NCBI GenBank assembly: GCA_965222125.1
Contig: CBDCTC010000001.1
Location: 16,731-80,730, forward strand
Origin: Dehalococcoidia bacterium
Lineage (GTDB): Bacteria; Chloroflexota; Dehalococcoidia; Lucifugimonadales; CAZENU01
Length of the DNA stretch: 64,000 bases
Reading direction: 5' to 3'
Shown: positions 7,284 through 56,455 of the stretch, one piece after another
Layout: each line of letters starts with the position of its first letter
Position numbering within the stretch: position 1 is the stretch's first letter
The notes under the pieces: generated by a model
What the model saw: the letters and a program-made list of their open reading frames with translations, nothing else
Databases searched by the model: none
What the model was told of the DNA's origin: nothing
Program-made: the position numbers and the translations under genes

Positions 7284-8321
7284 CTAGGGCCAGCGGAGCT
7301 GGGCGTTGTCGTAGACCTCCCGAAGGAACCGGTCGGTGAACCCCGTCCTGAAGTCGTAGGGGGCCGGCAGAGCTTCGAACTCGAGCAGATGGTCGTACAG
7401 CGCCTGCCACTGCTCATCGGTCATCCAGCCGACGCCGTTACGCACCGTCGCAGGGCCCACGGCGTCCTGCAGCTCTACTCCGAGCATGAAGCGCTGGTGC
7501 TCCCGGTCTTCCTCGGGCGCGAACTTCAGCACGATGTCGAGCGTCTCCTCGAGGTTGGCGCCGTCCAGCGCGAACGCGACGCCCTTGAGCGTGGCCTTGA
7601 GGAACTTTTCCACGACCTCGGGCCGCGCGTCGGCGGTCTTCTGCTGGGTGATGTAGGTCAGGCCCAGGCTTGGTACCCCGTGGTCCTCCGGGTTCCACAT
7701 CGTGACTTCGAAGCCGCCACCCGGAAGGTTGCGGATGATGTTCGGCTCGTTGGCCCTGAATACCGCGAGGACGTCCACCTTGCCCTCGGTCAGGACCCGC
7801 GGATCGAATCCCGCGTTGACCTCGGTGATATTGGACCTGTCGACGCCGTTGGCCTTCAGCATCGCCAGATAGTCGGGAGGTACTGCGATCTTGTATCCGA
7901 AGGTCTTGCCCTCCCAGTCCTGGAGCGTGTCGATCCCGGAGTCCTTCAGGGCTATGTACGACTGCTGGCCGCGCTGACCGAAGAGTGCGAAGGCGACGAT
8001 CGGGACGTCCGGCTCGGCCCGCCGCTTGAGCACGGACGCGGCGGCTGCGGTCGTGAAGTCGACGTCGCCGCTCAGCAGCAGCTGCAGGTGCCCGCCGCGC
8101 GGCGCGTGCCTGATCTCGACGTCCAGTCCCTGCTCCGCGAAGTATCCCTTCTCCTGCGCCACGTAGGCGGCCACGAAGGGCAGGTTCGCCTGGGGCTTGA
8201 ATCCTGCCATGAAGACGACCTTGTCCGGCTCGTCTCGGCAGGCGGCCGCGGACAGCAGCGCCACGGCGCAGATCACGCCCGCGGCCAGCGCGGCGAGGCC
8301 GAAGCGTCCAACGGGTCTCAT
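7284..8321 (-). CDS. ABC transporter substrate-binding lipoprotein, NMT1/THI5-like
   Basis: Lipobox SAAAC, FVAAYVAQEKGYFAEQGLDVEI, DWEGKTFG. ATG 8321 overlaps the permease stop (ATGA). Confidence 0.85.
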   Translation of the reverse strand: MRPVGRFGLAALAAGVICAVALLSAAACRDEPDKVVFMAGFKPQANLPFVAAYVAQEKGYFAEQGLDVEIRHAPRGGHLQLLLSGDVDFTTAAAASVLKRRAEPDVPIVAFALFGQRGQQSYIALKDSGIDTLQDWEGKTFGYKIAVPPDYLAMLKANGVDRSNITEVNAGFDPRVLTEGKVDVLAVFRANEPNIIRNLPGGGFEVTMWNPEDHGVPSLGLTYITQQKTADARPEVVEKFLKATLKGVAFALDGANLEETLDIVLKFAPEEDREHQRFMLGVELQDAVGPATVRNGVGWMTDEQWQALYDHLLEFEALPAPYDFRTGFTDRFLREVYDNAQLRWP

Positions 8322-10756: not shown

Positions 10757-13700
10757 ATGACGAACACCTCGGAATTGGCCGGCCGGTTGTCCTCAGTCAC
10801 GTGGAGATGTATCGGGCCGTACCGCGGCGGGAGGTCCATCGCGGTCGCGGGACACCCGACGGAGCGGGCGGTCTTCTATTTCGGGGCGTGCGTCGGAGGC
10901 GTGTGGAAGACGGACGACGGCGGCACGTACTGGGAGAACGTGTCGGACGGCTTCTTCAACACCGCGTCGGTGGGCGCTGTCGCGATAGCCGACTCCGACC
11001 CCAACGTTCTCTACGTCGGCACGGGCGAGGTCTGCATCCGCGGCAACCTGTCGCACGGAGACGGCGTGTACCGCTCGACCGACGGCGGCAAGACCTGGAG
11101 TCACCGCGGGCTCGCGGACACTCGCCACATCGGGCGCGTCCGGGTGCACCCGGACGACCCGGACCTGGTCTACGTGGCGGCTTTGGGCCACGCATTCGGT
11201 CCCAACGAGGAGCGCGGCGTCTTCAGGTCCAGGGACGGCGGCGGCTCCTGGGAGCGAGTGCTCTTCAAGAGCGAAAACGCAGGCGCCGTCGATCTGTCGA
11301 TGGACCCAAAGAACCCCCGCGTGCTGTTTGCCAGTATCTGGCAGGCGCGGCGCGAGCCGTGGGCGTTCACCAGCGGCGGTCCCGACAGCGGACTGCACCG
11401 GTCGACCGACGGCGGCGACACCTGGACCGACATCACGGAGAACGAGGGCCTGCCGGGCGGCCTGAAGGGGCGCATAGGCGTGGCCGTCTCGCCCGCGAAG
11501 GACGGCCGCGTCTGGGCCGTCGTGGAGGCCGACGACGCCGGCCTGTACCGGTCCGACGACGGCGGCGACACCTGGGAGCGCATCAGCGACGACCGAAACG
11601 TGGTCCAGCGGCCGTGGTACTACGGCCACGTCTTCGCGGACCCTCAGGATGCCGAGACCGTATGGGTGCTCAATCTGAGCGTCTGGAAGTCGGTCGACGG
11701 GGGCCGCAACTTCGAGCAGATCGGCTTCCCCCACGGCGACCATCACGACCTGTGGATCGACCCGAACGACCCGACGCGCATGATAGAGGGCAACGACGGC
11801 GGCGCCTGCGTGTCCTTCAACGCCGGGGGGTCGTGGACGACGATATACAACCAGCCGACCTCTCAGTTCTACCACCTCACGACGGACGACGAGTGGCCGT
11901 ACCGCGTGTACGGCACCCAGCAGGACAACAGCGCGATCAGCGTTCCGAGCCGGCAGCCCGACAAGGTGGGCATCCCGTGGGTCGACTGCTACACGGTCGG
12001 CTTCTCCGAGAGCGGGCACGTCGCCGTCAGGCCGGACGACCCGAACATAGTCTACTCCGGGGCAATCGGCAGCTCGCCCGGCGGCGGCGACTCGCTGATG
12101 CGCTACGACCACGGGCTGCGCCAGTCCCGGATCGTCTCCGTATGGCCCGAGCTGGTCAGCGGCCTCGGCCCCAAGGACCACCGGTACCGGTTCCAGTGGA
12201 CCTATCCCATAGTGATATCGCCGCACGACCCGGACGTCCTCTACGTCGCGGCCAACGTGCTGTTCAAGTCGACCAACGACGGCGAGAGCTGGGAGGAGAT
12301 CAGCCCGGACCTGACCCGCAACGATGAGACGAAGCTCGGACCTTCGGGCGGGCCGATCACCCTGGACACGACCTACGTCGAGCACTACGCGACCATCTTC
12401 GCCTTCACCGAGTCGCCCCACGAGCAGGGCGTGTTCTGGGCCGGATCGGACGACGGCCTGGTGCACATATCGCGGGACGGCGGGGCGAGCTGGGACGACG
12501 TTACGCCGCCCGGCCTGCCCGAGTGGACGCGGATCGACGTGATCGAGGCGTCCCCCCACGATCCCGCGACCGCGTACCTGGCGGCGACACGGTACAAGCT
12601 GGACGACAACCGCCCGTTCCTCTACAGGACGAACGACTACGGGGCCAGCTGGACCGAGATCACGGACGGCTTGCCGGACGACGACTTCACCCGCGTGATT
12701 CGCGAGGACGTAGTGCGGCGCGGCCTGCTGTACGCGGGCACCGAGCTCGGGATCTACGTTTCCCTGGACGACGGCGCGTCGTGGACGTCGCTGCGGGCCA
12801 ACATGCCAGTTGTCCCGGTGACCGACCTGGCCGTCAAGGAAGAGGAGCTTGTGGCCGCGACCAACGGCCGGTCGTTCTGGATCACCGGCGACCTGTCCCT
12901 GCTCCGAGAGCTGGCGGACGACCCCGGCGCCGGCGGCGCCCGCCTGTTCGGCCCCTCGCCGACCGTTCGTACTAACACCGCGACGGGCGACCCGAAGCCC
13001 GGCAAGAACTTCCTCGCGGGATTGACGTACTACGAGACCAAGCTCCCCAGCGGCGAGCGCGAGCGCAGGATGCTGGACGCCGGGGCCAACCCCGCCGACG
13101 GCGTGGTGGTCCACTACTGGATCGACGGCGATACCGAAGAAGAGGTCACGCTCACCTTCCTGGACTCGGCCGGAGAGGCGATTCGCAGCTTCTCCAGCAG
13201 CACCGAGGAGGGGAGCAAGGAGCCGGTGGCGCCGAAGGCAGCCGGGATGAACCGGTTCGTATGGGACACACGGTATCCGGGAGCGACGTCCGTGGAGGGC
13301 GAGGGGGCGCCGAAAGAGCCGAGCGCCGGGCCGGTCGCGCCGCCGGGCCGATATCAGGTCGCGCTCTCCGTCGGCGGCAGCTCCCAGACCCAGGCATTCG
13401 ATCTGCTGGCCGACCCTCGGACTCCGGCGACCCAGGAGGAGCTGCAGGCGCAGTTCGACCTGCTCATTCGCATTCGCGACAAGGTGTCCGCGACGCACGA
13501 GGCCGTGAATCGCTGCCGCCGCATCCTGAGCCAGGTGGACGAGTGGGTCTCGCGGGCCGCCGCGAAGCCCGGGGCCGAGGCCGTGCTGGAGCCGTCGGCC
13601 GACAAGGTCCGAGACAAGCTGGCCGCGGTCGAGGATGCGCTGTTCGATCCTTCGACGGCGGAGGGGCTGAATCGTCTGAGCAAGCCGGTCCGACTCGGCG

Positions 13701-13903
13701 TCAAGACGTCGGCAGTCGGGGACATCGCTTCGTTCGCCGACTACGGTCCTACGAAGCAGACCTACGAGGTCTTCGACATGGTGGCCGCCGGGGTCGACGA
13801 GCAGATCGAAGCCCTCGCGGCGATCGAGGACAGCGAAGTGGCGGAGTTCGCCGGTCTGGTCCAGGAGCTCGAGATACCGGCTATCCATGTCGAGACTCCC
13901 TGA
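10757..13903 (+). CDS. VPS10/BNR (Asp-box)-repeat glycosyl-hydrolase-like beta-propeller protein, no signal peptide
   Basis: WRCIGPYRGGRSIAV start and many Asp boxes (TDDGGTYW, STDGGKTW, SRDGGGSW, SDDGGDTW, SVDGGRNF, SRDGGASW, SLDDGASW). Confidence 0.85.
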   Translation: MTNTSELAGRLSSVTWRCIGPYRGGRSIAVAGHPTERAVFYFGACVGGVWKTDDGGTYWENVSDGFFNTASVGAVAIADSDPNVLYVGTGEVCIRGNLSHGDGVYRSTDGGKTWSHRGLADTRHIGRVRVHPDDPDLVYVAALGHAFGPNEERGVFRSRDGGGSWERVLFKSENAGAVDLSMDPKNPRVLFASIWQARREPWAFTSGGPDSGLHRSTDGGDTWTDITENEGLPGGLKGRIGVAVSPAKDGRVWAVVEADDAGLYRSDDGGDTWERISDDRNVVQRPWYYGHVFADPQDAETVWVLNLSVWKSVDGGRNFEQIGFPHGDHHDLWIDPNDPTRMIEGNDGGACVSFNAGGSWTTIYNQPTSQFYHLTTDDEWPYRVYGTQQDNSAISVPSRQPDKVGIPWVDCYTVGFSESGHVAVRPDDPNIVYSGAIGSSPGGGDSLMRYDHGLRQSRIVSVWPELVSGLGPKDHRYRFQWTYPIVISPHDPDVLYVAANVLFKSTNDGESWEEISPDLTRNDETKLGPSGGPITLDTTYVEHYATIFAFTESPHEQGVFWAGSDDGLVHISRDGGASWDDVTPPGLPEWTRIDVIEASPHDPATAYLAATRYKLDDNRPFLYRTNDYGASWTEITDGLPDDDFTRVIREDVVRRGLLYAGTELGIYVSLDDGASWTSLRANMPVVPVTDLAVKEEELVAATNGRSFWITGDLSLLRELADDPGAGGARLFGPSPTVRTNTATGDPKPGKNFLAGLTYYETKLPSGERERRMLDAGANPADGVVVHYWIDGDTEEEVTLTFLDSAGEAIRSFSSSTEEGSKEPVAPKAAGMNRFVWDTRYPGATSVEGEGAPKEPSAGPVAPPGRYQVALSVGGSSQTQAFDLLADPRTPATQEELQAQFDLLIRIRDKVSATHEAVNRCRRILSQVDEWVSRAAAKPGAEAVLEPSADKVRDKLAAVEDALFDPSTAEGLNRLSKPVRLGVKTSAVGDIASFADYGPTKQTYEVFDMVAAGVDEQIEALAAIEDSEVAEFAGLVQELEIPAIHVETP

Positions 13904-15108
13904 TGTTCCGCGGCCGCCAGCTCGGGCTGATCACCGGCGCCGACTTCGTGGTGCGCTGCGCGTACCAGGTCGGCAAGGCGCCCGTGCTGCCCCTGTTCGC
14001 CGCGGCCCTTGGCGCGGGCGAGGTCTTTCTGGGGCTGATCGTCTCGGTGTCGACCTTGACCGGAATGCTGCTGAAGCCGCTCTTCGGCGTCCTGTCAGAC
14101 CGGTGGGGCCGCCGCGTATGGCTGCTGGCGGGCACCGGGCTGTTCACCGGGATGCCTTTCGCCTACCACCTTGTCGAGTCGCCGGAGCATCTGCTGACCG
14201 TGCGCCTGCTGCACGGGACGGCGACTGCGATCTATGGCCCGGTGACGATCGCCTACGTCGCGGAGATGACGGCCGGCGGCAGGGCCGAGCGCATCGGCTG
14301 GTTCTCGCTGGCCCGCAACGCCGGGTACATCGTCGGACCGCTTGCCGGCGGCGCAATGCTGGTGTTCATGGACCCGGTGACGATCTTCACCGTGGTCGGC
14401 TTCGTCAGCGCGCTCGCCTTCCTGCCGGTGCTCATGTTGCCCGAGGGCGCGCGAGTGCCCGCAGCGAGGCGTACGCGGGTGCTTGCCCAAGCCCGCCTGG
14501 CGGTCGCCTCGGCGCTAAGGACGCCCTCCGTCTGGCTCGCCGGCAGCCTCGATGCACAGTTCCTGGTCGCCAAGTACGCGGTGAAGACCTTCCTGCCGCT
14601 GCAGGCGCTGTCGCTCGGCGTCAGCCCGGCCATGGTCGGCGTGGTGCTCGCCGCCCAGGAGGCCGCGAGCATGGCCTTGAGCCCGCTGGGAGGCCGTATC
14701 GGCGACCGCGTCGGGTACATGAAGTCGGTGCCCGCCGGCATGCTGGGCATGGCGGCCGCTCTGGTCCTGATGGCGCTGGCCGCGAGCGGTCCGGCCATGC
14801 TCGTCCCGGCCGTGCTCATGGGAGTCGCGCAGGCGCTTGTGTTCCCGTCGACGATGGCGCTCGTGTCCACGGAGGCCGACGGACGCCACCTCGGCGCGGG
14901 TATGGGAATGATCGGCACGTTCAAGAACGCCGCGAAGATAACCGGGCCCGTCGCCGCGGGCGTGCTGGTGCACTACATCGGCTTTGAGGGCGCGCTGCTG
15001 GCGATGGCAGGCTTCGTGCTGCTGGCGACGGCCGCGATGTGGACTCGGTTCCGCGCCAGGACCGACGGCCGGTCGCGCGGCCGCGCCCTGCCGGCGACGC
15101 CGGCGTAG
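13903..15108 (+). CDS. MFS transporter
   Basis: True start ATG 13903 overlaps the upstream TGA. Motif A GVLSDRWGRR and second copy GGRIGDRVG; about 12 TM helices. Confidence 0.88.
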   Translation: MFRGRQLGLITGADFVVRCAYQVGKAPVLPLFAAALGAGEVFLGLIVSVSTLTGMLLKPLFGVLSDRWGRRVWLLAGTGLFTGMPFAYHLVESPEHLLTVRLLHGTATAIYGPVTIAYVAEMTAGGRAERIGWFSLARNAGYIVGPLAGGAMLVFMDPVTIFTVVGFVSALAFLPVLMLPEGARVPAARRTRVLAQARLAVASALRTPSVWLAGSLDAQFLVAKYAVKTFLPLQALSLGVSPAMVGVVLAAQEAASMALSPLGGRIGDRVGYMKSVPAGMLGMAAALVLMALAASGPAMLVPAVLMGVAQALVFPSTMALVSTEADGRHLGAGMGMIGTFKNAAKITGPVAAGVLVHYIGFEGALLAMAGFVLLATAAMWTRFRARTDGRSRGRALPATPA

Positions 15109-31133: not shown

Positions 31134-31387
31134 GTGCTGAAAGCAGTCATCTTTGACTTGTACGAGACGCTGATAACCCAGTTCGACCCCAACTGGAAGC
31201 CGCCGAAGATGTCCCTGGCGGACCGGCTGGGCATCGAGGAGGAGGCCTTCCGGCGCCACTGGGGACCGCTGGCCACCAATTGGCGTAAGGGCCCGCCCCT
31301 ACCGGTACGAGGAGGTGCTCGAGGCGGTATGCAAGTCCGCCGGCCGTGCGCCGGACCGACGGGCGATCGCCGAGCTTGCCGCGCGCT
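31134..31387 (+). pseudogene. HAD-family hydrolase, N-terminal part (frameshift near 31295; cut by insertion)
   Basis: MLKAVIFDLYETL (motif I), then +1 frame YEEVLEAVCK...IAELAAR ending at CGCT 31384-31387. Confidence 0.8.
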
Positions 31388-31469
31388 TCCCCTCGATCCG
31401 GCCCGCCTCGTAGGCCTCGCAGGTCGCGCAGATCGGCCGCGGGCAGCCCGCCGGGTCGTGCTCCGTCAT
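31388..31469 (-). pseudogene. Small Cys-containing element gene truncated at the left junction
   Basis: MTEHDPAGCPRPICATCEAYEAGRIEGK; ATG overlaps the TGA of the upstream ORF (ATGA). Confidence 0.45.
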
Positions 31470-31618
31470 CGGCCCGCCGCGGCCAAGGCTCGGGCCTTGC
31501 GGTCACGCCTCGACGCACGCACGCGGCAGCGGCTCGAGCACGTCCGACGCGACCGGCGAACGTGCGTCATGTAATGGCCGCAGTATGCGCAGCGCAGCTG
31601 TGGTTTCGCTGTGTCCAT
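31466..31618 (-). CDS. Small Cys-rich (zinc-binding-like) basic protein
   Basis: MDTAKPQLRCAYCGHYMTHVRRSRRTCSSRCRVRASR (CxxC...CSxxC). Confidence 0.55.
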   Translation of the reverse strand: MDTAKPQLRCAYCGHYMTHVRRSRRTCSSRCRVRASRRDRKARALAAAGR

Positions 31619-31929
31619 GCGTCTTAGTGTATCACAGTCGGCGCGTTTAGACCGGGGGGTAGGGTGATTTGTGAACGGGGGATTGTTGTCGACCATGTGG
31701 CCTTGTGCACGCGCATTTTCCGGCCAGAAAACTTGGGGCGGTCGCCTTCGACGTAGGCGTCTCGCAGTGGCTTGCGCTTACAGCGGTCGGTCTGTACGCT
31801 CCCCAATGTCACAGCAACCCAATTGCCGGTTTCGGATGGGAGCGTCATGTTCCCTCGTTGATGGTTGCCGGGCTGGGTTGCTGTGACAAGCTGACCATCC
31901 CAAATCTGTCAACGAGGGAACACCAACCA

Positions 31930-33171
31930 ATGGCACGTATCACGCTCATACTCGGATTGCTTGTCGGGCTTGCTATCCTGGCACTGGCTGGTTGCGCTGG
32001 CCCGCAAGGCGACGCCGGGCCGCAGGGTCAACCGGGTCCGCAGGGCGAACTAGGGCCGCAGGGCGACGCAGGGCCGCAGGGTCAACCAGGGCCGCAGGGC
32101 GACGCAGGGCCGCAGGGTCAACCAGGGCCGCAGGGCGACGCAGGCCCGCAGGGCCAACCAGGGCCGCAGGGCGACGCAGGCCCGCAGGGCCAACCAGGGC
32201 CGCAGGGCGACGCAGGGCCACAGGGCCAACCAGGGCCGCAGGGCGACGCAGGGCCACAGGGCGACGCCGGGCCGCAGGGTCAACCAGGGCCGCGGGGCGA
32301 AGTAGGCCCGCAAGGCGACGCCGGGCCGCAGGGCGAACCAGGCCCTACACCCACGCCGTACCCGACACCTGCGCCGCTGCCCACGGCGACACCTGCGCCG
32401 CTGCCCACGGCAACACCTGCGCCGCTGCCCACGGCAACACCTGCGCCGCTGCCCAGTTCGTGGAACGACCTTCACGACAGGCTACGGTTGGCCGGAACTG
32501 TAGTGGAAGTTTGCGCTAGCGGGAGCCTCTTTGCGGGATGCGGCACAGGATGGGTTTATGAAGAGGGATGGGTAATCACCGCCGCGCACGTGCTGGCCGG
32601 AGCACCATCTGCTCAAGTCGAAGTCCACATTAGCAGTCCTTCAGGGGGTCAGTGTAGCGGCAGCAGTTGCGAACGCGGTAGCCTCAACTGGTACAAGAGC
32701 TATGCCGCTCAATACATGGGCTCGGACAAGTACCGCGACATAGCAGCGGTCAAGTTGTTTGATACCGGCGGCTTACACCCTGCGCCGCTGCCCAGGCGGG
32801 ATATCGACTCTTTGGGAGCGGACGAAAAGCTTGTGCTCATAGGTCAGAGCGGAGGGCTGCCAGCTGAAGCGAAGGTCGGCGTGCTCTCTATTGTGCGGAC
32901 GATTGCCCACGCTGAAGAAGAGGTGCACGGAGCAATAACGGTCATTGAGCTTGCCATTAACACCGTTGCGGGTGACTCAGGCGGGGCCTACGTTGACAAG
33001 TACGGGAGTGTCGTGGGAATCGTACAGGGCCGTTTGCCAGGCGTTAGGAACCCCGGTAGGTCCGTAGGGTTGCCGATATCGGAGATAGAAAAGGTCTGGG
33101 AACGGCTGAAGGCCGGGGAGCAGCTGAACGACGACCTAAAGCACTGGATGCACTATGAGTTTGACCAATGA
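31930..33171 (+). CDS. Lipoprotein: collagen-like stalk, Pro/Thr linker and trypsin-like (S1) serine protease
   Basis: Lipobox LAGC; 39 uninterrupted Gly-X-Y triplets; (TPAPLPTA)n; catalytic triad ITAAHV / YRDIAAV / GDSGG. Confidence 0.88.
31999..32457 (+). repeat. Coding tandem repeats: 36-bp collagen unit (31999-32349) and 24-bp PAPLPTAT unit (~32366-32457)
   Basis: GGGCCGCAGGGCGACGCAGGGCCGCAGGGTCAACCA and variants; CACCTGCGCCGCTGCCCACGGC(G/A)A repeats. Confidence 0.92.
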
Positions 33172-33424
33172 CTACGACCGCCTTAGCTAAGGAGCGAGCT
33201 AAGTAACTTTCTTCGGGGGTAGCCATTCGGTCTAGGCCGGATTCGGAGCGATCCCAAATTCAGCCAGGCCCAGGTCGTCGTCGTCGATCTTGAGGCCGTT
33301 GAGGTAGTCCAGGCCGACCAGGGCGGCTGGGCCAGCCATGTTGTTCTTGCCTGGGCCGTCTGGCGGCCAGCGGAGGGTCTTGCGGGGGAAGCTGGCGGGC
33401 CGCCCCACGCGGCCCCGCCCGCTT

Positions 33425-33457
33425 CCCCCCCCCTACCTTGTAGGGTAGGGGTAGGGG
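33425..33457. other. C-run/hairpin and TAGGG repeats downstream of the Rep-like gene (candidate origin element)
   Basis: CCCCTACC-TTGTAG-GGTAGGGG inverted repeat and three TAGGG units. Confidence 0.35.
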
Positions 33458-33496
33458 AGCCCGATTCCGTATCTACAGACGGCCGAAACGGCGCAG

Positions 33497-34883
33497 CTAA
33501 TCTAGTCCTGGGGGGAGAATCCGGTAACCGTCCGGCGTGTGGTCGATCACCACGTCGCCCGCGTCGGCCAGCGCTCCGAGATGGCCCGGCGCGCGTTCGC
33601 GCGCATCCTTCCGCGCCGGGCCGCCTGAGAGCGGATAGAACAGGTCGGCCAGCGCGTCGGGGTCGTACACGCGGTACCGCGCCGGATCGGGGTTGCGCAG
33701 CCAAACGCGACCACGCTTCACGGGGAAGCTGGTTTGACCTGGGTTGTACCAGTCGTAGGCAAGGCCGATCAGCGCGTTGTAGGCCGCCCCAGACTGCGCG
33801 CCCCACTGCTGAAGTGAGTCCGGGATGATCGGCCCCGCGTTGCTCGCGCCGGGGGGGAGCCGTACGGAGATGGTCAAGTCCGCGTCCAGGTCGTGCGGTA
33901 TGCCCAGCACGGAGACCACGCGCCACATGACGCGCCCGTGACCCTCGTCGACGGGGAAACGCGCGTCCATGCCGTCCAGCGCTACGGCGGCGTCCTCCAC
34001 GTCACGGGCGATCCGGGGCGTGGAGATGGTCTTGTAGCTGGCGGGGTACAGCCGCCGCCGAATCTCGCGCAGCGACACGCGCATATCAACGCCGCCTGGG
34101 CCGCCGCGTTCCAGCTGCGGGGCCAGTAGGACGGCCTCGACGAACAGTCGCAAGGCCAACGGCGCGCCATGTCCTTGCCTGCGCGCATCGATGCCGCGTC
34201 CCAGGCCGTACAGCGCCAGCGGGAACGCGGGGCCTGTCCGGGGCCGTTCGAAGCCGGGTAGCCACAGCTGCCCGCCCGCGTCTTGGCCCTGCCGCAGACG
34301 CCGGCATGAAGAACCGGCGCGTGCGCGGATCGCCGCGGCCCGCCATCCCAAGACCGGCCGGTAGGATGCGGCCGTCCCGCTGATTCGGCGCGGCCCTAAG
34401 CTGCACACGCTGCCACGCTCGAATCAGTGGCGGAACCGGGTTCAGCGGGTAGTCGGCGGGCTGAGGGTCGGGCCTGAATTCCCGCCACAGCTGCGCAATG
34501 TCAATCAGGTTGTCGGCCACTGTCGGCCGCCGCGGCCAGCGGCAATAGGCGGCGCGCGTTGCGGTAGCGTCGACAGTGGCCGGGCTGTCCGACATTCTGT
34601 ATTTGGCCAGTACCGGCCCGACCGATGGGTTGATAGGCATCCCAAGGCCAACGAAGCCGGAAGCGGCCGATTCGGAGTAGGTGTAGCGGCCCTGTATCCA
34701 GTCAAGCAACCCCTCGAACCGCTGCCACGCTTCGGCCAGTCCGTCGGCCATCCCGTCCGCGTACAGGTCGGCGGCCAGTGTCTCCCACGTGAGAACGGCG
34801 AAATCAGGGCCGGACGCCCCGTCGTTGTCGTCCGCCCACAGCCAGCGCGACCAGGCGTCCAGGTACTCGTCCGTCAATCTCAT
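33497..34883 (-). pseudogene. Large hypothetical, putative replication-initiator-like protein with frameshift (~34285-34300)
   Basis: MRLTDEYLDAW...RILPAGLGM...FFMPASA continues in the +1 frame as GQLWLPGF...PLALY...GAPLALRLFVEAVL...AYNALIGLAYDW...GYRILPPGLD. Start coupled (ATGA) to the upstream helicase-like fragment. Function inferred from position only. Confidence 0.45.
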
Positions 34884-35143
34884 CGTGGAAATGGCCCCTG
34901 CGGCGCGTCGGCGGCCCACGTGGGCGCGGGGGTGACTGACAACACGCCGCCGTTGTCCTGGGCCAGCCATACCTTCGCGGGCTGCTGCCCGTAGTTCGTT
35001 TTCTCGCACGTCAAGACCAGGGCGTCCCGCTGATTCGGCGCGGCCTTGCCGTTCGGCGTCGGGCCTTTCTCGGTTTCGTGAGCCAGCGTCCAAACGGCGC
35101 GATGGGCCGCCAGCCAGTCCGTCGAGCCGCTGAAAGGAACGCT
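34880..35143 (-). pseudogene. 3' fragment of an AAA_25/RepA-like replicative helicase, cut at the right junction
   Basis: PFSGSTDWLAAHRAVWTL...LVLTCEKTNYG resembles the RepA-type helicase C-terminal motifs (GSxAWxxxxR; KxNYG). Confidence 0.5.
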
Positions 35144-35622
35144 GCGAGAGCAGGCTGCCCCCGTTCGAGAACGTCGAGTCTCCGATCGTCGAGCTGGTCG
35201 ACGCCCTTCGATCACGCGGGTTGAGGCTCGGCGTCGTGACGAACGCCGCGAGCGGCGACGTGGAGCCATGGTCCCGGTGCCGGCTGGCGCCGCGATTCGG
35301 TGCGTTCATCGCCTCCTACCGTGTCGGGATGCTCAAGCCCGACACGCGAATCTACGAGTGCTGCTTGGAGGCGTTGGGGGTGACTGCCGCGGAGGCGTCT
35401 TTGTTGGAGACTCCGGATACGAGGCGATGAACGAGCTGGACGGCGCCATGCGCGTCGGCCTGAGGCCGTTCTGGGCCACGTGGTTCCTGGACCGGTGGCG
35501 GCCCGGCACGCGGCGGATGCCCGGGCGAGAGCCTCCATTTCCCGCCTGCGCGCCCCACGGACCTGCTGGACGTGGTCCTCTGCGAACTGGACAACCAGTT
35601 AACCCTGGGGGTGTTTTCGTGA
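35144..35622 (+). pseudogene. HAD-family hydrolase, C-terminal part (further frameshifts near 35400 and ~35545)
   Basis: LGVVTNA (motif II), VGMLKPDTRIY (motif III), FVGDS (motif IV) in a shifted frame. Confidence 0.8.
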
Positions 35623-35903
35623 ACGGGCAAAATCGCGAATAGCGACCTGAGTTGTTATCGGCTCCGCGAATAAGGCCTGTTGCGGGCCGTGGTTGTTTGC
35701 GATAACAGGCAAAACCGATAATAGCGGCCTGGGCTATTATCGCCTCCGCGAACAAGGATTGCTACGGGCTACGCTTGTTTGCGATAATGGGCTGAAACGA
35801 TAATAACGGTCTGGGCTATTATCACCTCCGCGAACAAGGGCTGCTACGGGCTGCGCTTGTTTTCGTGAAGGGGCTTCAACGATAATAACGGTCTGGGCTA
35901 TTC
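35610..35903. repeat. Non-coding tandem array, ~3.5 copies of an 82-bp double-hairpin unit
   Basis: CTCCGCGAA at 35662, 35744, 35826 (period 82). Per unit: CGATAATAGC-N7-GCTATTATCG and GCGAACAAG-N17-CTTGTTTGC. Confidence 0.88.
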
Positions 35904-38627: not shown

Positions 38628-40351
38628 CCCGAATCCACCGATGGACATGGATGGACGGCGTGAGGACAGTGGAAGAGGAGTGAGGGAGTTACAGGGGCGA
38701 TGATCCGGGCTCGAATTCGGGTAGACGGGAGGTTGGCGGGGGGTCTGCAGGCGCTTTTGGGGGCGCCAATGGCGGTCTGCGATGGGCGCTGTGGGACAAG
38801 ATGAGGACAGAGGACGCGGCAAGAGGCGCTCGCGGACCAGGGTGGCGCGAGTTGGCGGGGACGTTCAGTTGGCCTGATGGCGGGTCAGTGGCAAACGGGC
38901 GCCGTCAGGTCGGGAGTGGAATGGCTCGCAATCGAGCCAGGGCGCGAGTGAACTGGGTTTCCCAGGGCCAGCCCTGTGGCAGATGCAAAGTGAGGCGGCG
39001 GGCCGAGCGGGTGAGCCGTCCGGCCAGGGAGAAGAAGCGCCGCCGGAGGGTCCTGGTGGTCACCACCCCCTCGCCCAGACCGATGCGGGCTGTCCAGCGG
39101 GCCAGGTTGTGGGCCATCACCTGGACCGCCAGCCAGGCGGCGTTGGCGGCGAAGCGGCCCGAGGGGAGATGGTTGAGTCCGACGCCGTACTTCAGGTCTC
39201 GGATGGCATTCTCGATCTCGGCGTGGCGGCGGTGGTCGGCCTCCAGTTCCAGGGTCTCCCCGTCCCGGTCGGTGATGAAGCCGTGATAGCTGTAGGTGGC
39301 GAAGAGGGCCAGTTGGGAACCGGGCGTGGGCTTCACCCGCCGCACGATGAGCCGTACCGGCGCGGCGTCGGGCTCACCCTGGAAGGGGGTGTAGGTGATC
39401 TCGGCCACATCGGCGGCGCCGTCCATCCAGTATGGGATGGGCGTCCAGTCCGCCTCGGGTATGGCCTCGATCAGGTTCCGCAGGCTTTTGTGCTGCCGGA
39501 TGGTGATGGAGAAGCGCACGTCCAGCTTGCGGCAGACGACGACCAGGGCGTGGGTGTAGAAGCCGCTGTCGGCCCGCACCGTGAGTTGTCCCCTGGCCCC
39601 GCCGTAGCGCACCCGCCCCACCGTTTCCCGCAGGAAGTGGGCGGCGCCGCGGGCGGTGTTGGCGCGGCCCTCACGCAGCCGGGCCATCAGCACGTCGCCG
39701 GTTCCGGCGGCAATGGCCAGCAGCGGGTGATAGCCCCGCTTGCCGGTATAGCCGTGGTGGCGGGCGCCCTCCTTGGCCAGTCCGTAGGTCTCGCAGATCG
39801 TCGAATCAAGGTCGATGGTGAACGGTGCGTCGCTGGGTCCGGCCCCAGCCGCCCAGGCCTGGGCCAGCAGCTCCCGGCTCACCCGGTCCAGTTGGCGGAC
39901 ATGGCCCCACCGGAAACTGCGCAGGAAGGTGCCCAGGGTGGAGGGCGCCTTGACCGTGCCGCCCAGGGTGCGGGCTGTCCCCCCGGTGCGCAACACATCG
40001 GCGTCGTCAATACAGTCGCCGCCAGCCAGCGCAGACGCAACCAGGGTCATCATCTTGTCGCCCGTGTTGGCCCGGCCCGGCGCATTGCCCAGGTCGAGGC
40101 ACTGCTGGACGAGTTGGGGCAGGCCGAGGCGCAGGGCGAGGGTGGCCGGAAGGAGCAGCCCGGCATTGGCCACCAGGCGGTGGTCGTCGAAGGCGATACG
40201 GATGCGGTCGGGGTGGTGGCGTGGTAGCATCTATTGGGTGCTCCTTTTCTGGGGTGGGTTTCGTGTTTCAAAACCATTATCCCAGATTCATGGGGGCACC
40301 CTCTCGCTTCTTCAAGGGCTGTCCCCAAGGCCCTCCTTCGGTGGATTCGGG
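38628..40351 (-). mobile_element. IS1380-family element type A, complete copy (1,724 bp)
   Basis: TIRs CCCGAATCCACCGA / TCGGTGGATTCGGG. No clean TSD (flanks TAAG / CTAA). Confidence 0.88.
38905..40230 (-). CDS. IS1380-family DDE transposase (type A)
   Basis: IDLDST, YHPLLA, LREGRANTA, VRADSGFY, HAEIENAIRDLK, LPSGRFAANAAW. Confidence 0.92.
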   Translation of the reverse strand: MLPRHHPDRIRIAFDDHRLVANAGLLLPATLALRLGLPQLVQQCLDLGNAPGRANTGDKMMTLVASALAGGDCIDDADVLRTGGTARTLGGTVKAPSTLGTFLRSFRWGHVRQLDRVSRELLAQAWAAGAGPSDAPFTIDLDSTICETYGLAKEGARHHGYTGKRGYHPLLAIAAGTGDVLMARLREGRANTARGAAHFLRETVGRVRYGGARGQLTVRADSGFYTHALVVVCRKLDVRFSITIRQHKSLRNLIEAIPEADWTPIPYWMDGAADVAEITYTPFQGEPDAAPVRLIVRRVKPTPGSQLALFATYSYHGFITDRDGETLELEADHRRHAEIENAIRDLKYGVGLNHLPSGRFAANAAWLAVQVMAHNLARWTARIGLGEGVVTTRTLRRRFFSLAGRLTRSARRLTLHLPQGWPWETQFTRALARLRAIPLPT

Positions 40352-41157: not shown

Positions 41158-43058
41158 GCCAAAACCCCCACCTGACATTGTTGGGAGCTGCTTGGTGTGC
41201 TTTCAGGGGGTGTCCGGATGTCGACTTGGGGTGACGCATGACATGATCGGCATCGGACAGGGTCTCGGGTGCCGTCTTTGAGGGTATCGGCAGCGGTTCG
41301 CTGCCAATTGTGGCTGTTGTCAGGCCGAAGAAGGCATGGCCCAGCCTGGCAACTCGGCAGAGTCGCCTACAAACCGATGCTCCAGGCAGGGTCGCCTATG
41401 CCCGATACGGCTCGGCAGCCAGCGCCAATATCCTCTGCCGCGCCCTGAGCAGCAACTCGTATGAGGGATGGCCACGGGCAAGACGGATGATCAACCTCCT
41501 GGCGTGACGCACCACACGGCCCGGTAGGGCGATCAGGGCGAAACGCACCGCCTTGAGACGCTTGCCCACCCACTGTCCGCCCAACACCAGCCGCTTCATG
41601 GCAGAGTTCAAAGCCTGCCCCGTAGCCCCATACGGGGTTGAAGGCCAACACTGCTATCGCCCACCATGCTGCGTTGGCTCCGAACAGCCCCGACGGAAGC
41701 CTGCCCCCGGCAAGGTCACTCTTGAGGACGCCGTGGACCTCCTCGCCCTTGCCACATCTCTGCCTCGACCACCAGATCAACTCATCTCCCGCAATGCTCC
41801 GGTTGGTCACCACTCCGAAGACCTTGTACCAGCCTCTGTTGGACAACTCCATCGCGGGGAACGGAAGCTCCATCTGCCCCTCCATTCCCGGCAGAGGCTG
41901 TTCGATCAACCGCTCCCTGGTAGCTATGAACCGATACTCAGGGCTGTTCTTGGAGTGCCCTATCCAGTTGGGCACGAAGTTCACATCAGCCCACTGCTGA
42001 CCCGTGTCCACACGATGCTCCCCAACCTTGCGGTACAGCGTCTGCCAGTCTTGCTCGGCGACCTCGGACACCGCACGGCGGAACTCCGTCGTCACGTCGA
42101 CCCCAACCGCGAACTCAATCACCCCGAACCGCTCGTCTCTGCCCTCCGCGCAGTACCGCAGCAACTCCCGCTGGTACCCCGCCGTATCCGACCTCAGCAT
42201 CACCTTCTCCACCCCCGCAGGCAGACGGCCCAGCCCTTCAATCAACACTCGTAACTGCTGATGGCCCGCCGGTACATTGCCGTCCCGAAACTCCGAATGC
42301 ACAATCTGGTCGGCCTCTGCCCAGTAGGTGGTCAGCGGCTGGTAGGCCCTGTACTTGTTGTAGCTGTGGAGCGCCTCCTGCTTGTGTGTCTCCACCAGAC
42401 AGGCGTCCATGTCCAGTGTGGCCTCTCTCTGAGGCGAACGGCTCTGCACGAAGCCCACCAGGTCGGCGTTCACCTTCCCCAGACCCTCCATAGCTCCGTT
42501 GGGAGCAGGTATGAATGCTCTGTGAGCTTGCCGCATCGCCTCCTCGCCCGCGTCATGGAACCTCTCCAGATACCGGAACACCGCAGACTCCGACGGCACG
42601 CTCCGACGACGCTCGACTCGCCATCTCGCCTTCAGCGCCCTGCGCTCCCTACTACCCATCCCCCAGGTCTCGGCATGGCGAAGTACCCTGCACAAACCTG
42701 CGTCCTTCTCAAGGAGATCAAGGTCGGACACCGACTCGCCGCCTGCCAAGTTCAGCAGTATCAGCGACGTGATTATCTGGCTGTCCGTCCAGCCCTGACC
42801 ACACTCCCGCAGTCTCACGTGGCGTTCCACCGACGACCTCAAACCCGCTGCTTGCATCAACTCCAGGTACGTCATCAGCCCGGACAGTCCCGTCATACCT
42901 GTCGAGCCCTTCTCCTGCTCGTACTGGAATGCCAGTAAGCCTTGCTTCATAATAGATGCACCTCGTTGGTGATCGGTTCGTTTGCTCAACAACCATCTTA
43001 GCCCGCATCGCGTCGGGCTCCAACGAGGTCTTCCTCTTATCTAGGTGGGGAATCTGGG
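41158..43058 (-). mobile_element. IS1380-family element type B, copy 1 (1,901 bp), transposase frameshifted by a 25-bp insertion
   Basis: Ends GCCAAAACCCCCACCT / AGGTGGGGAATCTGGG; 1,876+25 bp. CDS from ~42950 shifts frame at 41612-41636. No TSD (CATG / TCAC). Confidence 0.9.
41612..41636. repeat. 25-bp REP-like palindromic insertion
   Basis: AGCCTGCCCCGTAGCCCCATACGGG present in B1, absent from B2 and B3 at GAGTTCAA^GTTGAAGG. Confidence 0.9.
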
Positions 43059-47470: not shown

Positions 47471-49346
47471 CCCAGATTCCCCACCTAGATAAGAGGAAGA
47501 CCTCGTTGGAGCCCGACGCGATGCGGGCTAAGATGGTTGTTGAGCAAACGAACCGATCACCAACGAGGTGCAGCTATTATGAAGCAAGGCTTACTGGCAT
47601 TCCAGTACGAGCAGGAGAAGGGCTCGACAGGTATGACGGGACTGTCCGGGCTGATGACGTACCTGGAGTTGATGCAAGCAGCGGGTTTGAGGTCGTCGGT
47701 GGAACGCCACGTGAGACTGCGGGAGTGTGGTCAGGGCTGGACGGACAGCCAGATAATCACGTCGCTGATACTGCTGAACTTGGCAGGCGGCGAGTCGGTG
47801 ATGGACCTGGAGGTTCTGGAGAAGGACGCAGGTTTGTGCAGGGTACTTCGCCATGCCGAGACCTGGGGGATGGGTAGTAGGGAGCGCAGGGCGCTGAAGG
47901 CGAGATGGCGAGTCGAGCGTCTTCGGAGCGTGCCGTCGGAGTCTGCGGTATTCCGGTATCTGGAGAGGTTCCATGACGCGGGCGAGGAGGCGATGCGGCA
48001 AGCTCACAGAGCATTCATACCTGCTCCCAACGGAGCTATGGAGGGTCTGGGGAAGGTGAACGCCGACCTGGTGGGCTTCGTGCAGAGCCGTTCGCCTCAG
48101 AGAGAGGCCACTCTGGACATGGACGCCTGTCTGGTGGAGACACACAAGCAGGAGGCGCTCCCCAGCTACAAGAAGTACAGGGCCTACCAGCCGCTGACCA
48201 CCTACTGGGCAGAGGCCGACCAGATTGTGCATTCTGAGTTTCGGGACGGCAATGTACCGGCGGGCCATCAGCAGTTGCGAGTGTTGATTGAAGGGCTGGG
48301 CCGTCTGCCTGCGGGGGTGGAGAAGGTGATGCTGAGGTCTGACACGGCGGGGTACCAGCGGGAGTTGCTGCGGTACTGCGCGGAGGGTAGAGACGAGCGG
48401 TTCGGGGTGATTGAGTTCGCGGTTGGGGTCGACGTGACGACGGAGTTCCGCCGTGCGGTGTCCGAGGTCGCCGAGCAAGACTGGCAGACGCTGTACCGCA
48501 AGGTTGGGGAGCATCGTGTGGACACGGGTCAGCAGTGGGCTGATGTGAACTTCGTGCCCAACTGGATAGGGCACTCCAAAAACAGCCCTGAGTATCGGTT
48601 CATAGCTACCAGGGAGCGGTTGATCGAACAGCCTCTGCCGGGGATGGAGGGGCAGATGGAGCTTCCGTTCCCCGCGATGGAGCTGTCCAACAGAGGCTGG
48701 TACAAGGTCTTCGGAGTGGTGACCAACCGGAGCATTGCGGGAGATGAGTTGATCTGGTGGTCGAGGCAGAGATGTGGCAAGGGCGAGGAGGTCCACGGCG
48801 TCCTCAAGAGTGACCTTGCCGGGGGCAGGCTTCCGTCGGGGCTGTTCGGAGCCAACGCAGCATGGTGGGCGATAGCAGTGTTGGCCTTCAACTTGAACTC
48901 TGCCATGAAGCGGCTGGTGTTGGGCGGACAGTGGGTGGGCAAGCGTCTCAAGGCGGTGCGCTTCGCCCTGATCGCCCTACCGGGCCGTGTGGTGCGTCAC
49001 GCCAGGAGGTTGATCATCCGTCTTGCCCGTGGCCATCCCTCATACGAGTTGCTGCTCAGGGCGCGGCAGAGGATATTGGCGCTGGCTGCCGAGCCGTATC
49101 GGGCATAGGCGACCCTGCCTGGAGCATCGGTTTGTAGGCGACTCTGCCGAGTTGCCAGGCCGGGCCATGCCTTCTTCGGCCTGACAACAGCCACAATTGG
49201 CAGCGAACCGCTGCCGATACCCTCAAAGACGGCACCCGAGACCCTGTCCGATGCCGATCATGTCATGCGTCACCCCAAGTCGACACCCGGACACCCCCTG
49301 AAAGCACACGAAACAACTCCCAACCATGTCAGGTGGGGGATTTGGG
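47471..49346 (+). mobile_element. IS1380-family element type B, copy 2 (1,876 bp, intact)
   Basis: TIRs CCCAGATTCCCCACCT / AGGTGGGGGATTTGGG; 4-bp TSD GATC. Confidence 0.93.
47579..49108 (+). CDS. IS1380-family DDE transposase (type B)
   Basis: TLDMDA, YQPL, EFRDGNVPA, LRSDTAGY, EEVHGVLKSDL, LPSGLFGANAAW. RBS GAGGTG. Confidence 0.92.
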   Translation: MKQGLLAFQYEQEKGSTGMTGLSGLMTYLELMQAAGLRSSVERHVRLRECGQGWTDSQIITSLILLNLAGGESVMDLEVLEKDAGLCRVLRHAETWGMGSRERRALKARWRVERLRSVPSESAVFRYLERFHDAGEEAMRQAHRAFIPAPNGAMEGLGKVNADLVGFVQSRSPQREATLDMDACLVETHKQEALPSYKKYRAYQPLTTYWAEADQIVHSEFRDGNVPAGHQQLRVLIEGLGRLPAGVEKVMLRSDTAGYQRELLRYCAEGRDERFGVIEFAVGVDVTTEFRRAVSEVAEQDWQTLYRKVGEHRVDTGQQWADVNFVPNWIGHSKNSPEYRFIATRERLIEQPLPGMEGQMELPFPAMELSNRGWYKVFGVVTNRSIAGDELIWWSRQRCGKGEEVHGVLKSDLAGGRLPSGLFGANAAWWAIAVLAFNLNSAMKRLVLGGQWVGKRLKAVRFALIALPGRVVRHARRLIIRLARGHPSYELLLRARQRILALAAEPYRA

Positions 49347-54579: not shown

Positions 54580-56455
54580 CCCAAATCCCCCACCTGACAT
54601 GGTTGGGAGTTGTTTCGTGTGCTTTCAGGGGGTGTCCGGGTGTCGACTTGGGGTGACGCATGACATGATCGGCATCGGACAGGGTCTAGGGTGCCGTCTT
54701 TGAGTGTATCGGCAGCGGTTCGCTGCCAATTGTGGCTGTTGTCAGGCCGAAGAAGGCATGGCCCGGCCTGGCAACTCGGCAGAGTCGCCTACAAACCGAT
54801 GCTCCAGGCAGGGTCGCCTATGCCCGATACGGCTCGGCAGCCAGCGCCAATATCCTCTGCCGCGCCGTGAGCAGCAACTCGTATGAGGGATGGCCACGGG
54901 CAAGACGGATGATCAACCTCCTGGCGTGACGCACCACACGGCCCGGTAGGGCGATCAGGGCGAAGCGCACCGCCTTGAGACGCTTGCCCACCCACTGTCC
55001 GCCCAACACCAGCCGCTTCATGGCAGAGTTCAAGTTGAAGGCCAACACTGCTATCGCCCACCATGCTGCGTTGGCTCCGAACAGCCCCGACGGAAGCCTG
55101 CCCCCGGCAAGGTCACTCTTGAGGACGCCGTGGACCTCCTCGCCCTTGCCGCATCTCTGCCTCGACCACCAGATCAACTCATCTGCCGCAATGCTCCGGT
55201 TGGTCACCACTCCGAAGACCTTGTACCAGCCTCTGTTGGACAGCTCCATCGCGGGGAACGGAAGCTCCATCTGCCCCTCCATTCCCGGCAGAGGCTGTTC
55301 GACCAACCGCTCCCTGGTAGCTATGAACCGATACTCAGGGCTGTTCTTGGAGTGCCCTATCCAGTTGGGTACGAAGTTCACATCAGCCCACTGCTGACCC
55401 GTGTCCACACGATGCTCCCCAACCTTGCGGTACAGCGTCTGCCAGTCTTGCTCGGCGACCTCGGACACCGCACGGCGGAACTCCGTCGTCACGTCGACCC
55501 CAACCGCGAACTCGATCACCCCGAACCGCTCGTCTCTACCCTCCGCGCAGTACCGCAGCAACTCCCGCTGGTACCCCGCCGTATCCGACCTCAGCATCAC
55601 CTTCTCCACCCCCGCAGGCAGACGGCCCAGCCCTTCAATCAACACTTGCAACTGCTGATGGCCCGCCGGTACATTGCCGTCCCGAAACTCCGAATGCACA
55701 ATCTGGTCGGCCTCTGCCCAGTAGGTGGTCAGCGGCTGGTAGGCCCTGTACTTCTTGTAGCTGTGGAGCGCCTCCTGCTTGTGTGTCTCCACCAGACAGG
55801 CGTCCATGTCCAGTGTGGCCTCTCTCTGAGGCGAACGGCTCTGCACGAAGCCCACCAGGTCGGCGTTCACCTTCCCCAGACCCTCCATAGCTCCGTTGGG
55901 AGCAGGTATGAATGCTCTGTGAGCTTCCCGCTTCGCCTCCTCGCCCGCGTCATGGAACCTCTCCAGATACCGGAACACCGCAGACTCCGACGGCACGCTC
56001 CGACGACGCTCGACTCGCCATCTCGCCTTCAGCGCCCTGCGCTCCCTACTACCCATCCCCCAGGTCTCGGCATGGCGAAGTACCCTGCACAAACCTGCGT
56101 CCTTCTCCAGAACCTCCAGGTCCATCACCGACTCACCGCCTGCCAAGTTCAGCAGTATCAGCGACGTGATTATCTGGCTGTCCGTCCAGCCCTGACCACA
56201 CTCCCGCAGTCTCACGTGGCGTTCCACCGACGACCTCAAACCCGCTGCTTGCATCAACTCCAGGTACGTCATCAGCCCGGACAGTCCCGTCATACCTGTC
56301 GAGCCCTTCTCCTGCTCGTACTGGAATGCCAGTAAGCCTTGCTTCATAATAGATGCACCTCGTTGGTGATCGGTTCGTTTGCGCAACAACCATCTTAGCC
56401 CGCATCGCGTCGGGCTCCAACGAGGTCTTCCTCTTATCTAGGTGGGGAATCTGGG
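54580..56455 (-). mobile_element. IS1380-family element type B, copy 3 (1,876 bp, intact; transposase 54818-56347)
   Basis: Same TIRs as copy 2; 4-bp TSD CACC (54576-54579 and 56456-56459). Confidence 0.93.

Follow-up and report, generated by a model that had tools for sequence, protein, structure and literature searches.

A predicted lipoprotein of a Dehalococcoidia bacterium that joins a collagen-like stalk to an HtrA-like protease head

Introduction

Collagen-like surface proteins such as Scl1 and Scl2 of Streptococcus, BclA of Bacillus and Lcl of Legionella are built around uninterrupted Gly-X-Y repeats without hydroxyproline and carry a globular domain at the surface of the cell or spore. 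To our knowledge, the bacterial collagen-like proteins characterized so far are adhesins, spore filaments or phage fibers. The HtrA, DegP, DegS and DegQ proteases (MEROPS S1C) form a second group, located in the cell envelope and assembled from trimers of a chymotrypsin-fold domain with a His-Asp-Ser triad. Here we describe a gene whose product combines these two known kinds, a bacterial collagen-like surface protein and an HtrA-like protease. The gene lies in a 64,000-nucleotide stretch of Dehalococcoidia bacterium DNA (hereafter the window, meaning the whole stretch that was analyzed, numbered from its first letter), which corresponds to C1:16731-80730 of a 3.75-Mb genome that is 95.9% complete. 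An original prediction, made from the nucleotide letters, had described the product as a lipid-anchored, trypsin-like protease on a collagen stalk.

The protein departs from its bacterial collagen-like counterparts in three respects. Scl proteins, BclA and Lcl are held by a C-terminal LPXTG motif or by the basal layer, whereas the stalked protease is reversed, with a predicted N-terminal lipid anchor. Their heads are adhesin or trimerization domains, in contrast to the enzyme head predicted here from sequence. Finally, their hosts are pathogens, and the host here is an environmental bacterium.

Results

Architecture of the gene and its product

The gene (31930-33171, + strand) is an intact open reading frame (ORF) of 413 codons without internal stops. 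Its translation, a count of its triplets, Pfam matches and family alignments bear out the architecture of the original prediction, a lipobox followed by (Gly-X-Y)39, a Pro/Thr hinge and an S1 protease head with intact His, Asp and Ser, which was correct in all countable details (Table 1). The anticipated domain combination was likewise recovered, with Collagen (PF01391; E 5.4e-19, 68.2 bits against a gathering cut-off of 27.2) and Trypsin_2 (E 2.9e-15; Trypsin, E 1.1e-9) found behind a lipobox containing Cys22. Short-read assemblies produced independently in two studies contain fragments that are 100% identical to the gene, which is therefore not an assembly artefact. The start codon at 31930 is supported because the ORF of a second allele (L045, described below) is intact from the same ATG, with an insertion sequence (IS) only 5 bp upstream.

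The signal peptide has Arg3, a basic n-region and a hydrophobic core, and by inspection fits the PROSITE PS51257 rule; its lipobox conforms to the pattern [LVI][ASTVI][GAS]C, with the Cys within residues 15-35. Cleavage and lipidation at Cys22 are thus predicted, and the same genome encodes Lgt (PF01790, 136.7 bits) and LspA (PF01252, 127.1 bits). The collagen-like tract that follows consists mostly of GPQ (18), GDA (9) and GQP (7) triplets, with Pro and Gln abundant at the X and Y positions, and the count rises to 40 if G21-C22-A23 is included. By inspection, the stalk contains no GxxGER integrin-type motif. Tandem Repeats Finder resolves the underlying DNA into 9.1 copies of a 36-bp repeat (32017-32342), of which neighboring units are identical in pairs and therefore indicate recent duplication. 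The same program finds 3.8 copies of a 24-bp repeat (32365-32455) encoding the PAPLPTAT unit of the Pro/Thr linker. As a terminator, the hairpin downstream of the gene is only suggestive, with 2 such sites found against 1.4 expected by chance.

Table 1. Features of the stalked protease gene and its surroundings, in window coordinates
Feature	Coordinates	Strand	Basis or remark
Foreign insert in HAD-hydrolase gene, 3,755 bp, carrying the protease gene	31381..35135		Empty site in three same-genus genomes
Shine-Dalgarno-like GAGGGA	31914..31919	+	10 nt 5' of ATG; read from sequence
Predicted lipoprotein signal peptide, residues 1-22	31930..31995	+	Lipobox L-A-G-C; Cys22 codon 31993-31995
Collagen-like tract, residues 24-140, 39 uninterrupted Gly-X-Y triplets	31999..32349	+	Triplet count; Pfam Collagen
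Pro/Thr-rich linker, residues 141-176 (36 residues)	32350..32457	+	Built on unit PAPLPTAT
S1 (HtrA/DegP-like) protease head, residues 177-413 (237 residues)	32458..33168	+	Pfam, PDB sequence matches, AlphaFold2, Foldseek
Catalytic His220, codon CAC (ITAAHV)	32587..32589	+	Invariant in family; aligned to HtrA His
Variable Cys-containing loop between His and Asp, residues 233-267, C242-x5-C248	32626..32730	+	Subclade-specific insertion
Catalytic Asp270, codon GAC (YRDIAAVKL)	32737..32739	+	Invariant in family; aligned to HtrA DIAVIK
Catalytic Ser350, codon TCA, in GDSGG	32977..32979	+	Invariant in family; aligned to HtrA GNSGG
C-terminal family signature, helical tail instead of PDZ domain	33076..33168	+	Alignment, model
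Weak terminator-like hairpin	33182..33203	+	11 nt past stop codon

An HtrA-like head without a PDZ domain

In a HMMER search of PDB sequences, only HtrA, DegS, DegQ, DegP and Deg1/HhoA proteases match the head. Their TNYHV, DIAVIK and GNSGG motifs align with ITAAHV, DIAAVK and GDSGG of the head, and its catalytic residues align with the HtrA triad in 1l1j. Two family alignments, of 13 and of 27 homologues, show no substitution at His220, Asp270 or Ser350. An AlphaFold2 (AF2) model of the head, built from the 27-sequence family alignment, has a pLDDT of 83.7 and a pTM of 0.85, and the loop of residues 233-267 is its sole low-confidence segment. Foldseek places DegS, DegQ and DegP at the top of the matches to this model (probability 1.0, TM-scores 0.65-0.68), with Deg1 also among the best PDB folds and MarP among the fold matches (3lt3). 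The chymotrypsin-fold domain and His-Asp-Ser triad of the HtrA/DegP family are therefore both present. The label "trypsin-like" needs one correction: the head is HtrA/DegP-like, with an S1C-like fold, and not a trypsin proper.

The head is nevertheless not a canonical HtrA. No PDZ domain was found in the product by Pfam at E values up to 1, and only about 30 residues remain after the protease domain. These form a family-specific tail, helical in the AF2 model, in which E385, V389, W390, K394, G396, N400 and W406 are invariant across the family alignment. The curated NCBIfam HtrA models score far below their cut-offs (TIGR02037, 36.2 against 416 bits; NF041521, 35.4 against 450), and all of the HtrA and MarP models fall short by about tenfold.

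A small protease family with interchangeable stalks

Homologues were sought with residues 172-413 as the query, a whole-protein query being drowned in collagen-only matches. This returned 12 matches among 5.8 billion proteins, and an exhaustive phmmer search of 1.84 billion representatives gave 16 clusters at E <= 1e-10. All 15 loci in GTDB species genomes are labelled 'MAG: Dehalococcoidia bacterium' (MAG, metagenome-assembled genome). In an even sample of the class, the family is present in 10 of 401 genomes and 3 of 223 genera, with eight of the ten genomes in one genus. The head family is thus tiny and, in the databases searched, found only in Dehalococcoidia.

All complete members share one plan, an N-terminal anchor followed by an extended spacer and then the head. 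Either a lipobox serves as the anchor, or a transmembrane (TM) helix with a short heptad-like segment behind it. Most members have a Pro/Thr-rich spacer, which in some includes additional globular domains (22 of 27 have Pro/Thr-rich or globular spacers), and five have a collagen-like one: the window gene (P0001), L009, L011, L014 and P0128. L009 is a 62%-identical orthologue with 35 triplets following Cys-Ala and the lipobox LAGC. L011 and L014, which occur in one genome, have 11+26+4 and 47 triplets, respectively, each behind the lipobox LAAC, and P0128 has 20 triplets and the lipobox LSAC. Gly periodicity is strict in all four of these other stalks, which range from 20 to 47 triplets.

Three lines of evidence indicate that the stalk is a swappable module and the linker a recombination joint. 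First, the collagen label changes five times on the maximum-likelihood tree of the heads, and at least four of these changes are forced by well-supported branches. Second, the nearest relative, P0002 (gene at L026), has an 88%-identical head on a TM helix and a long Pro/Thr linker without collagen, and DNA homology between the two genes starts at 32416, within the linker. Finally, a 723-nt cassette, made up of the upstream region, the signal peptide and the collagen tract, recurs in L011 and L014 with 82.7% DNA identity, while the heads of these two proteins belong to different subclades and can be aligned as DNA only over a 70-nt conserved tail. Together, these comparisons show the collagen tract to be one of several, evidently interchangeable, spacers of this protease family.

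The cassette spans L011 5675-6374 and L014 5688-6395, about 188 kb apart in the same MAG, and a third, partial protease copy (7346-7753; 66% identical to the window head) lies directly after L011. At L027 1057-4690, genes for an oligopeptide-type ABC transporter (SBP_bac_5, BPD_transp_1) and an M24 peptidase directly precede P0128, and a second, weak Trypsin_2 gene follows 2.5 kb downstream. A short-chain dehydrogenase/reductase (SDR) gene directly downstream of the protease in five loci of one genus was judged coincidental, as these genomes hold dozens of SDR paralogues.

A second allele and in-frame repeat changes

The same locus and insert are present in another metagenome assembly (L045) at 96-99% identity, with an intact protease ORF of 405 amino acids. 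In this allele, a 1.87-kb DDE_Tnp_1_4 IS (12955-14826, at the point corresponding to window 31925/31926) lies just upstream of the ATG. The native Shine-Dalgarno region has given way to sequence from the end of the IS (GGTGGGGGA), and the IS may either silence the protease gene or drive it. Relative to the window, the collagen array of L045 has lost 18 bp and gained 18 bp at separate places, so that the net count is still 39 triplets, and the Pro/Thr array has lost 24 bp, or one PAPLPTAT unit. All three repeat indels between the alleles are in frame. Length variation was taken from this assembled allele, as Logan short-read contigs break inside the 36-bp array and the apparent skips in them, with sides of 21-30 nt, are unreliable. 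The original prediction that the DNA repeats allow stalk length to vary is therefore upheld by the in-frame changes between alleles and by the range of 20 to 47 triplets among orthologues and paralogues, but not as variation within the population, as both alleles carry 39 triplets.

The heads of the two alleles differ by 13 substitutions, of which 10 fall within the surface loop of residues 233-267, the remainder of the head being almost the same; this cluster could be a recombination patch or a sign of diversifying selection. Compared with the head of P0002, the window head has a dN/dS of 0.23. This value and the intact ORF in both alleles lend modest support to purifying selection on the gene, at which the original prediction had hinted.

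A recent insertion into a HAD-hydrolase gene

Collinearity of the window with three genomes of the same genus breaks off after 31380 and resumes at 35136, and the intervening DNA is therefore an insertion. The closest of these genomes (G003) has just 2 nt in its place, and the site reads GAGCTTGCC|CG|GGAACGCT. Neither terminal repeats nor a recombinase were seen in the insert. No member of the protease family was found in four congeners at E <= 1e-10 by a method that recovers both copies in the window's genome, and GC content at third codon positions is 0.64-0.69 in the protease gene against 0.84-0.92 in flanking genes. Judged from these comparisons, the protease gene is a recent foreign import.

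The protease is also, as originally predicted, the sole large intact gene of the insert, its neighbor being frameshifted in this genome. That neighbor, from a family without a name, spans about 461 codons (33500-34883, - strand) and is frame-split near 34285; a variant contig from run X2 has a single-base deletion at 34295. L045 has an intact version of the gene at this locus (P0273; identity about 90-92% over the two aligned pieces), and none of its 43 relatives at E <= 0.001 has a Pfam domain on record. The HAD reading frame carries further lesions, shifting also at about 31290 and in its C-terminal piece (35221-35640). Elsewhere in the window, two DDE_Tnp_1_4 transposase ORFs follow the locus (38905-40230 and 41367-42992). 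Inverted copies of a 523-amino-acid ORF with identical composition statistics (47537-49108, + strand; 54818-56389, - strand) look like IS transposases, and GC content from about 38 to 50 kb is below that of the rest.

The host cell and its other predicted collagen-stalked lipoproteins

The 95.9%-complete genome gave no match to the penicillin-binding protein transpeptidase, SEDS proteins (FtsW/RodA), the MurG N-domain or Omp85, whereas control genomes did. Within the limits of a MAG, the host apparently is a monoderm without peptidoglycan. Because the cell has none of the wall and outer-membrane markers searched for, a lipoprotein would be directly exposed at its surface.

In a six-frame scan of the genome, runs of 10 or more consecutive Gly-X-Y triplets turned up in eight ORFs. 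Six of these, the window gene among them, have a lipobox Cys followed within 0-20 residues by a collagen tract of 20-87 triplets and then by differing heads. A metagenomic protein (P0054) carries a PQQ beta-propeller behind a lipobox, collagen tract and Pro/Thr linker. The protease would therefore be one head on a display scaffold that is general to the lineage. The other five lipobox-collagen ORFs are located at C2:30731, C3:81557, C3:186413, C5:615277 and C6:998634; C2:30731, C3:81557 and C6:998634 matched only the Collagen family in Pfam, and C2:30731 and C3:186413 are paralogues with similar heads.

The genome holds a second member of the protease family (C6:1511493-1514977), which is split by an IS. 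A 484-amino-acid transposase gene separates a fragment with a lipobox (LIGC), a short collagen tract and a Pro/Thr linker from the remainder, a helical domain and protease (P0129). A degraded, tyrosine-integrase-like ORF lies just downstream (L002 2370-3386).

Discussion

A proposed mechanism and the evidence that bears on it

We favor, as probable though by no means secure, a reading in which the gene encodes a surface lipoprotein, a PDZ-less HtrA-like trimeric protease borne on a collagen rod and working away from the membrane. The protein would be exported by the Sec pathway and processed by Lgt and LspA, leaving a diacylglyceryl-Cys22 anchor in the cytoplasmic membrane, which, given that no peptidoglycan or outer-membrane markers were found, would also be the cell surface. 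Three lipid anchors could bring three chains into register at the membrane, and the Gly-X-Y tract, which begins two residues after the lipidated Cys, would zip into a triple helix about 34 nm long (117 residues at a rise of about 0.29 nm each). The Pro/Thr hinge would add flexible reach of up to about 10 nm, and three HtrA-like heads could associate as in the DegS and DegP trimers. Trimerization of the protease is plausible by analogy, since its closest folds, DegS, DegQ and DegP, are built from trimers. Neither a known V-domain nor a coiled coil was found beside the tract; candidate registration elements are the three lipid anchors and the head itself.

Pro, Gln, Asp, Glu and Ala have a high triple-helix propensity in host-guest peptides, and the composition of the tract is therefore favorable for a triple helix. 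Recombinant bacterial collagens form stable helices without hydroxyproline. The proteolysis would most likely serve to break down proteins outside the cell or on its surface, either to supply peptides or to maintain the surface. The peptide ABC transporter and M24 peptidase beside one relative fit nutrition, although this is a single case and the other neighborhoods are uninformative. The role in host matrix or biofilm processing put forward in the original prediction is pure inference.

Several observations weigh against this reading. First, the triple helix and the trimer, like the height above the surface, the activity and the substrate, are features that we infer from sequence. The stalk is acidic, with 12 Asp/Glu against 1 Arg per chain, and lacks charge pairs of the kind that stabilize Scl2, and the flexible linker between rod and head weakens the coupling of rod register to head assembly. 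Second, most family members use a Pro/Thr spacer, so that trimerization by the stalk cannot be essential for the head, and no conserved neighbor genes point to a substrate (L009, L013, L026 and L027 are flanked by unrelated housekeeping genes). Finally, the gene could be unexpressed cargo, given that the insert around it is recent and interrupts a pseudogene and that its neighbor is frameshifted. No sigma-70-like promoter was found near it, in a scan that says little for Chloroflexota, and none of the public RNA runs searched contains the gene.

Alternative explanations

A role in surface quality control or maturation, that is, HtrA-like housekeeping of exported, stalked proteins in place of the degradation of nutrients or matrix, is suggested by the head itself. 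Its closest folds and sequence matches are all quality-control proteases (HtrA, DegS, DegQ and DegP), and at least five other predicted collagen-stalked lipoproteins of comparable height could be its clients. However, the PDZ domain that senses and gates substrates in HtrA proteases is missing, and absence of the family from four congeners and from 391 of the 401 class genomes marks it as accessory, not housekeeping. The single relative beside a peptide transporter and peptidase also fits nutrition. We consider such a role unlikely, while still giving it real weight.

The Gly-X-Y tract might instead be no more than a low-complexity spacer, extended and perhaps monomeric, that does the same job as the Pro/Thr linkers of the relatives and neither forms a triple helix nor contributes to trimerization. 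The frequency of Pro/Thr-rich or globular spacers in the same position, the TM helix and Pro/Thr linker that replace collagen in P0002, and the net acidic stalk with few stabilizing charge pairs are all consistent with this explanation, and a single-sequence AF2 model of the full protein (pLDDT 42.6) shows the tract as a low-confidence extended chain. A disordered spacer, however, does not need Gly at every third residue, nor X and Y positions rich in Pro and Gln. The 39 triplets are free of Gly interruptions in both alleles despite repeat indels, those in the collagen array being multiples of 18 bp, and strict Gly periodicity recurs in four other, independent stalks. A structureless spacer is therefore, in our judgement, rather improbable.

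In a third explanation, a dead mobile fragment brought the gene along as unexpressed, hitch-hiking cargo, and the gene is still intact for no other reason than its recent insertion. The setting of the gene invites this view, as its 3,755-bp insert interrupts a pseudogenized HAD gene, the protease gene has no homologue in congeners, the adjoining 461-codon gene is frameshifted, an IS splits the genome's second family copy, and neither a promoter-like site nor an RNA run with the gene was found. Against it, the ORF is intact in two alleles that have diverged by 13 amino-acid changes and three in-frame indels, and about 350 bp of highly slippage-prone repeats carry no frameshift. With a dN/dS of 0.23, and with the catalytic and family-invariant residues all kept, mere cargo of this kind seems quite unlikely. 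That the protein is a phage or mobile-element fiber, a collagen-like tail fiber with a C-terminal protease or chaperone, is highly improbable: the gene does lie in a foreign insert, and prophage fiber proteins often carry collagen-like tracts (PMC3368898), but the product has an N-terminal lipoprotein signal peptide and an HtrA-like head instead of an S74 intramolecular chaperone, no relative was found in 2.9 million viral contigs, the ORFs of the insert have no significant PHROG matches, and the relatives occupy ordinary chromosomal contexts.

Comparison with known systems

The favored reading, a rod-borne trimeric surface protease, sets the protein beside several described systems. Repeat number varies between strains in Scl1, Scl2, BclA and Lcl; here, two alleles differ by repeat indels that leave the net triplet count unchanged. 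The best NCBIfam matches over the tract are to families of the Scl/Lcl type and cover only the Gly-X-Y region, and the equivalog models for Scl1/Scl2 and Lcl score well below their cut-offs (NF038329, 82.7 against 325 bits; NF038330, 74.1 against 400; NF046116, 64.8 against 500).

With HtrA, DegP, DegS and DegQ, its best sequence and fold matches, the protein shares the chymotrypsin-fold domain, the His-Asp-Ser triad, the GDSGG motif and, by prediction, an envelope location, and the trimers from which that family is built would match the three-chain stalk that we propose. It differs in having a family-specific C-terminal helical tail and no PDZ domain. The HtrA proteases are either anchored by a TM helix or periplasmic and soluble, whereas the stalked protease would be held by a lipid and a collagen rod. 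MarP of Mycobacterium (Rv3671c), which is also among the NCBIfam matches, is likewise an outward-facing chymotrypsin-fold protease that lacks a PDZ domain and is tethered to the cytoplasmic membrane, but it has four TM helices and no stalk, and the NCBIfam MarP model gives 33.8 bits against a cut-off of 250.

The literature searched contains no account of collagen-like proteins in Dehalococcoidia, SAR202 or Chloroflexi symbionts, and no description of a bacterial collagen-protease fusion. We know of no enzyme-bearing collagen rod that starts directly at a lipid anchor. We therefore offer, tentatively and with more doubt than confidence, a broader proposal: wall-less Dehalococcoidia may use a portable cassette of 5' region, signal peptide, lipobox Cys and Gly-X-Y tract as a general pillar of variable length, in which a triple helix nucleated by three acyl anchors holds enzymes or binding domains at set heights above the naked membrane. 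In the present case, the head would be a PDZ-less HtrA-like protease that needs a trimer, and the cassette would be shuffled through recombination in the linker. Such a system would be an independent, hydroxyproline-free counterpart of the collectins, scavenger receptors and ColQ, and its protease the first natural catalytic domain fused to a prokaryotic collagen.

If the rod forms, it would provide a simple natural model of how membrane anchoring can nucleate a hydroxyproline-free triple helix, show a wall-less monoderm organizing its surface in height, and give an HtrA-type trimer assembled by an external trimerizing stalk instead of PDZ-mediated oligomers. Within a single, small family of proteases, collagen and Pro/Thr spacers have replaced each other repeatedly, which makes a clean natural experiment on the purpose of the spacer, and modular stalk swapping in a wall-less host yields a clear, testable hypothesis. 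Recombinant bacterial collagen scaffolds that carry enzymes give the arrangement practical interest.

Among eukaryotic proteins, class A scavenger receptors and MARCO, the collectins and C1q, and ColQ acetylcholinesterase use a collagen helix, anchored in a membrane or matrix, as a rigid, trimerizing spacer for distant globular or enzymatic heads. The parallel is one of analogy, since those collagens contain hydroxyproline and are held by TM helices or non-covalent tails, and homology extends only to the Gly-X-Y periodicity. In ColQ, moreover, the enzyme is a separate polypeptide, whereas the protease described here is fused to its collagen tract.

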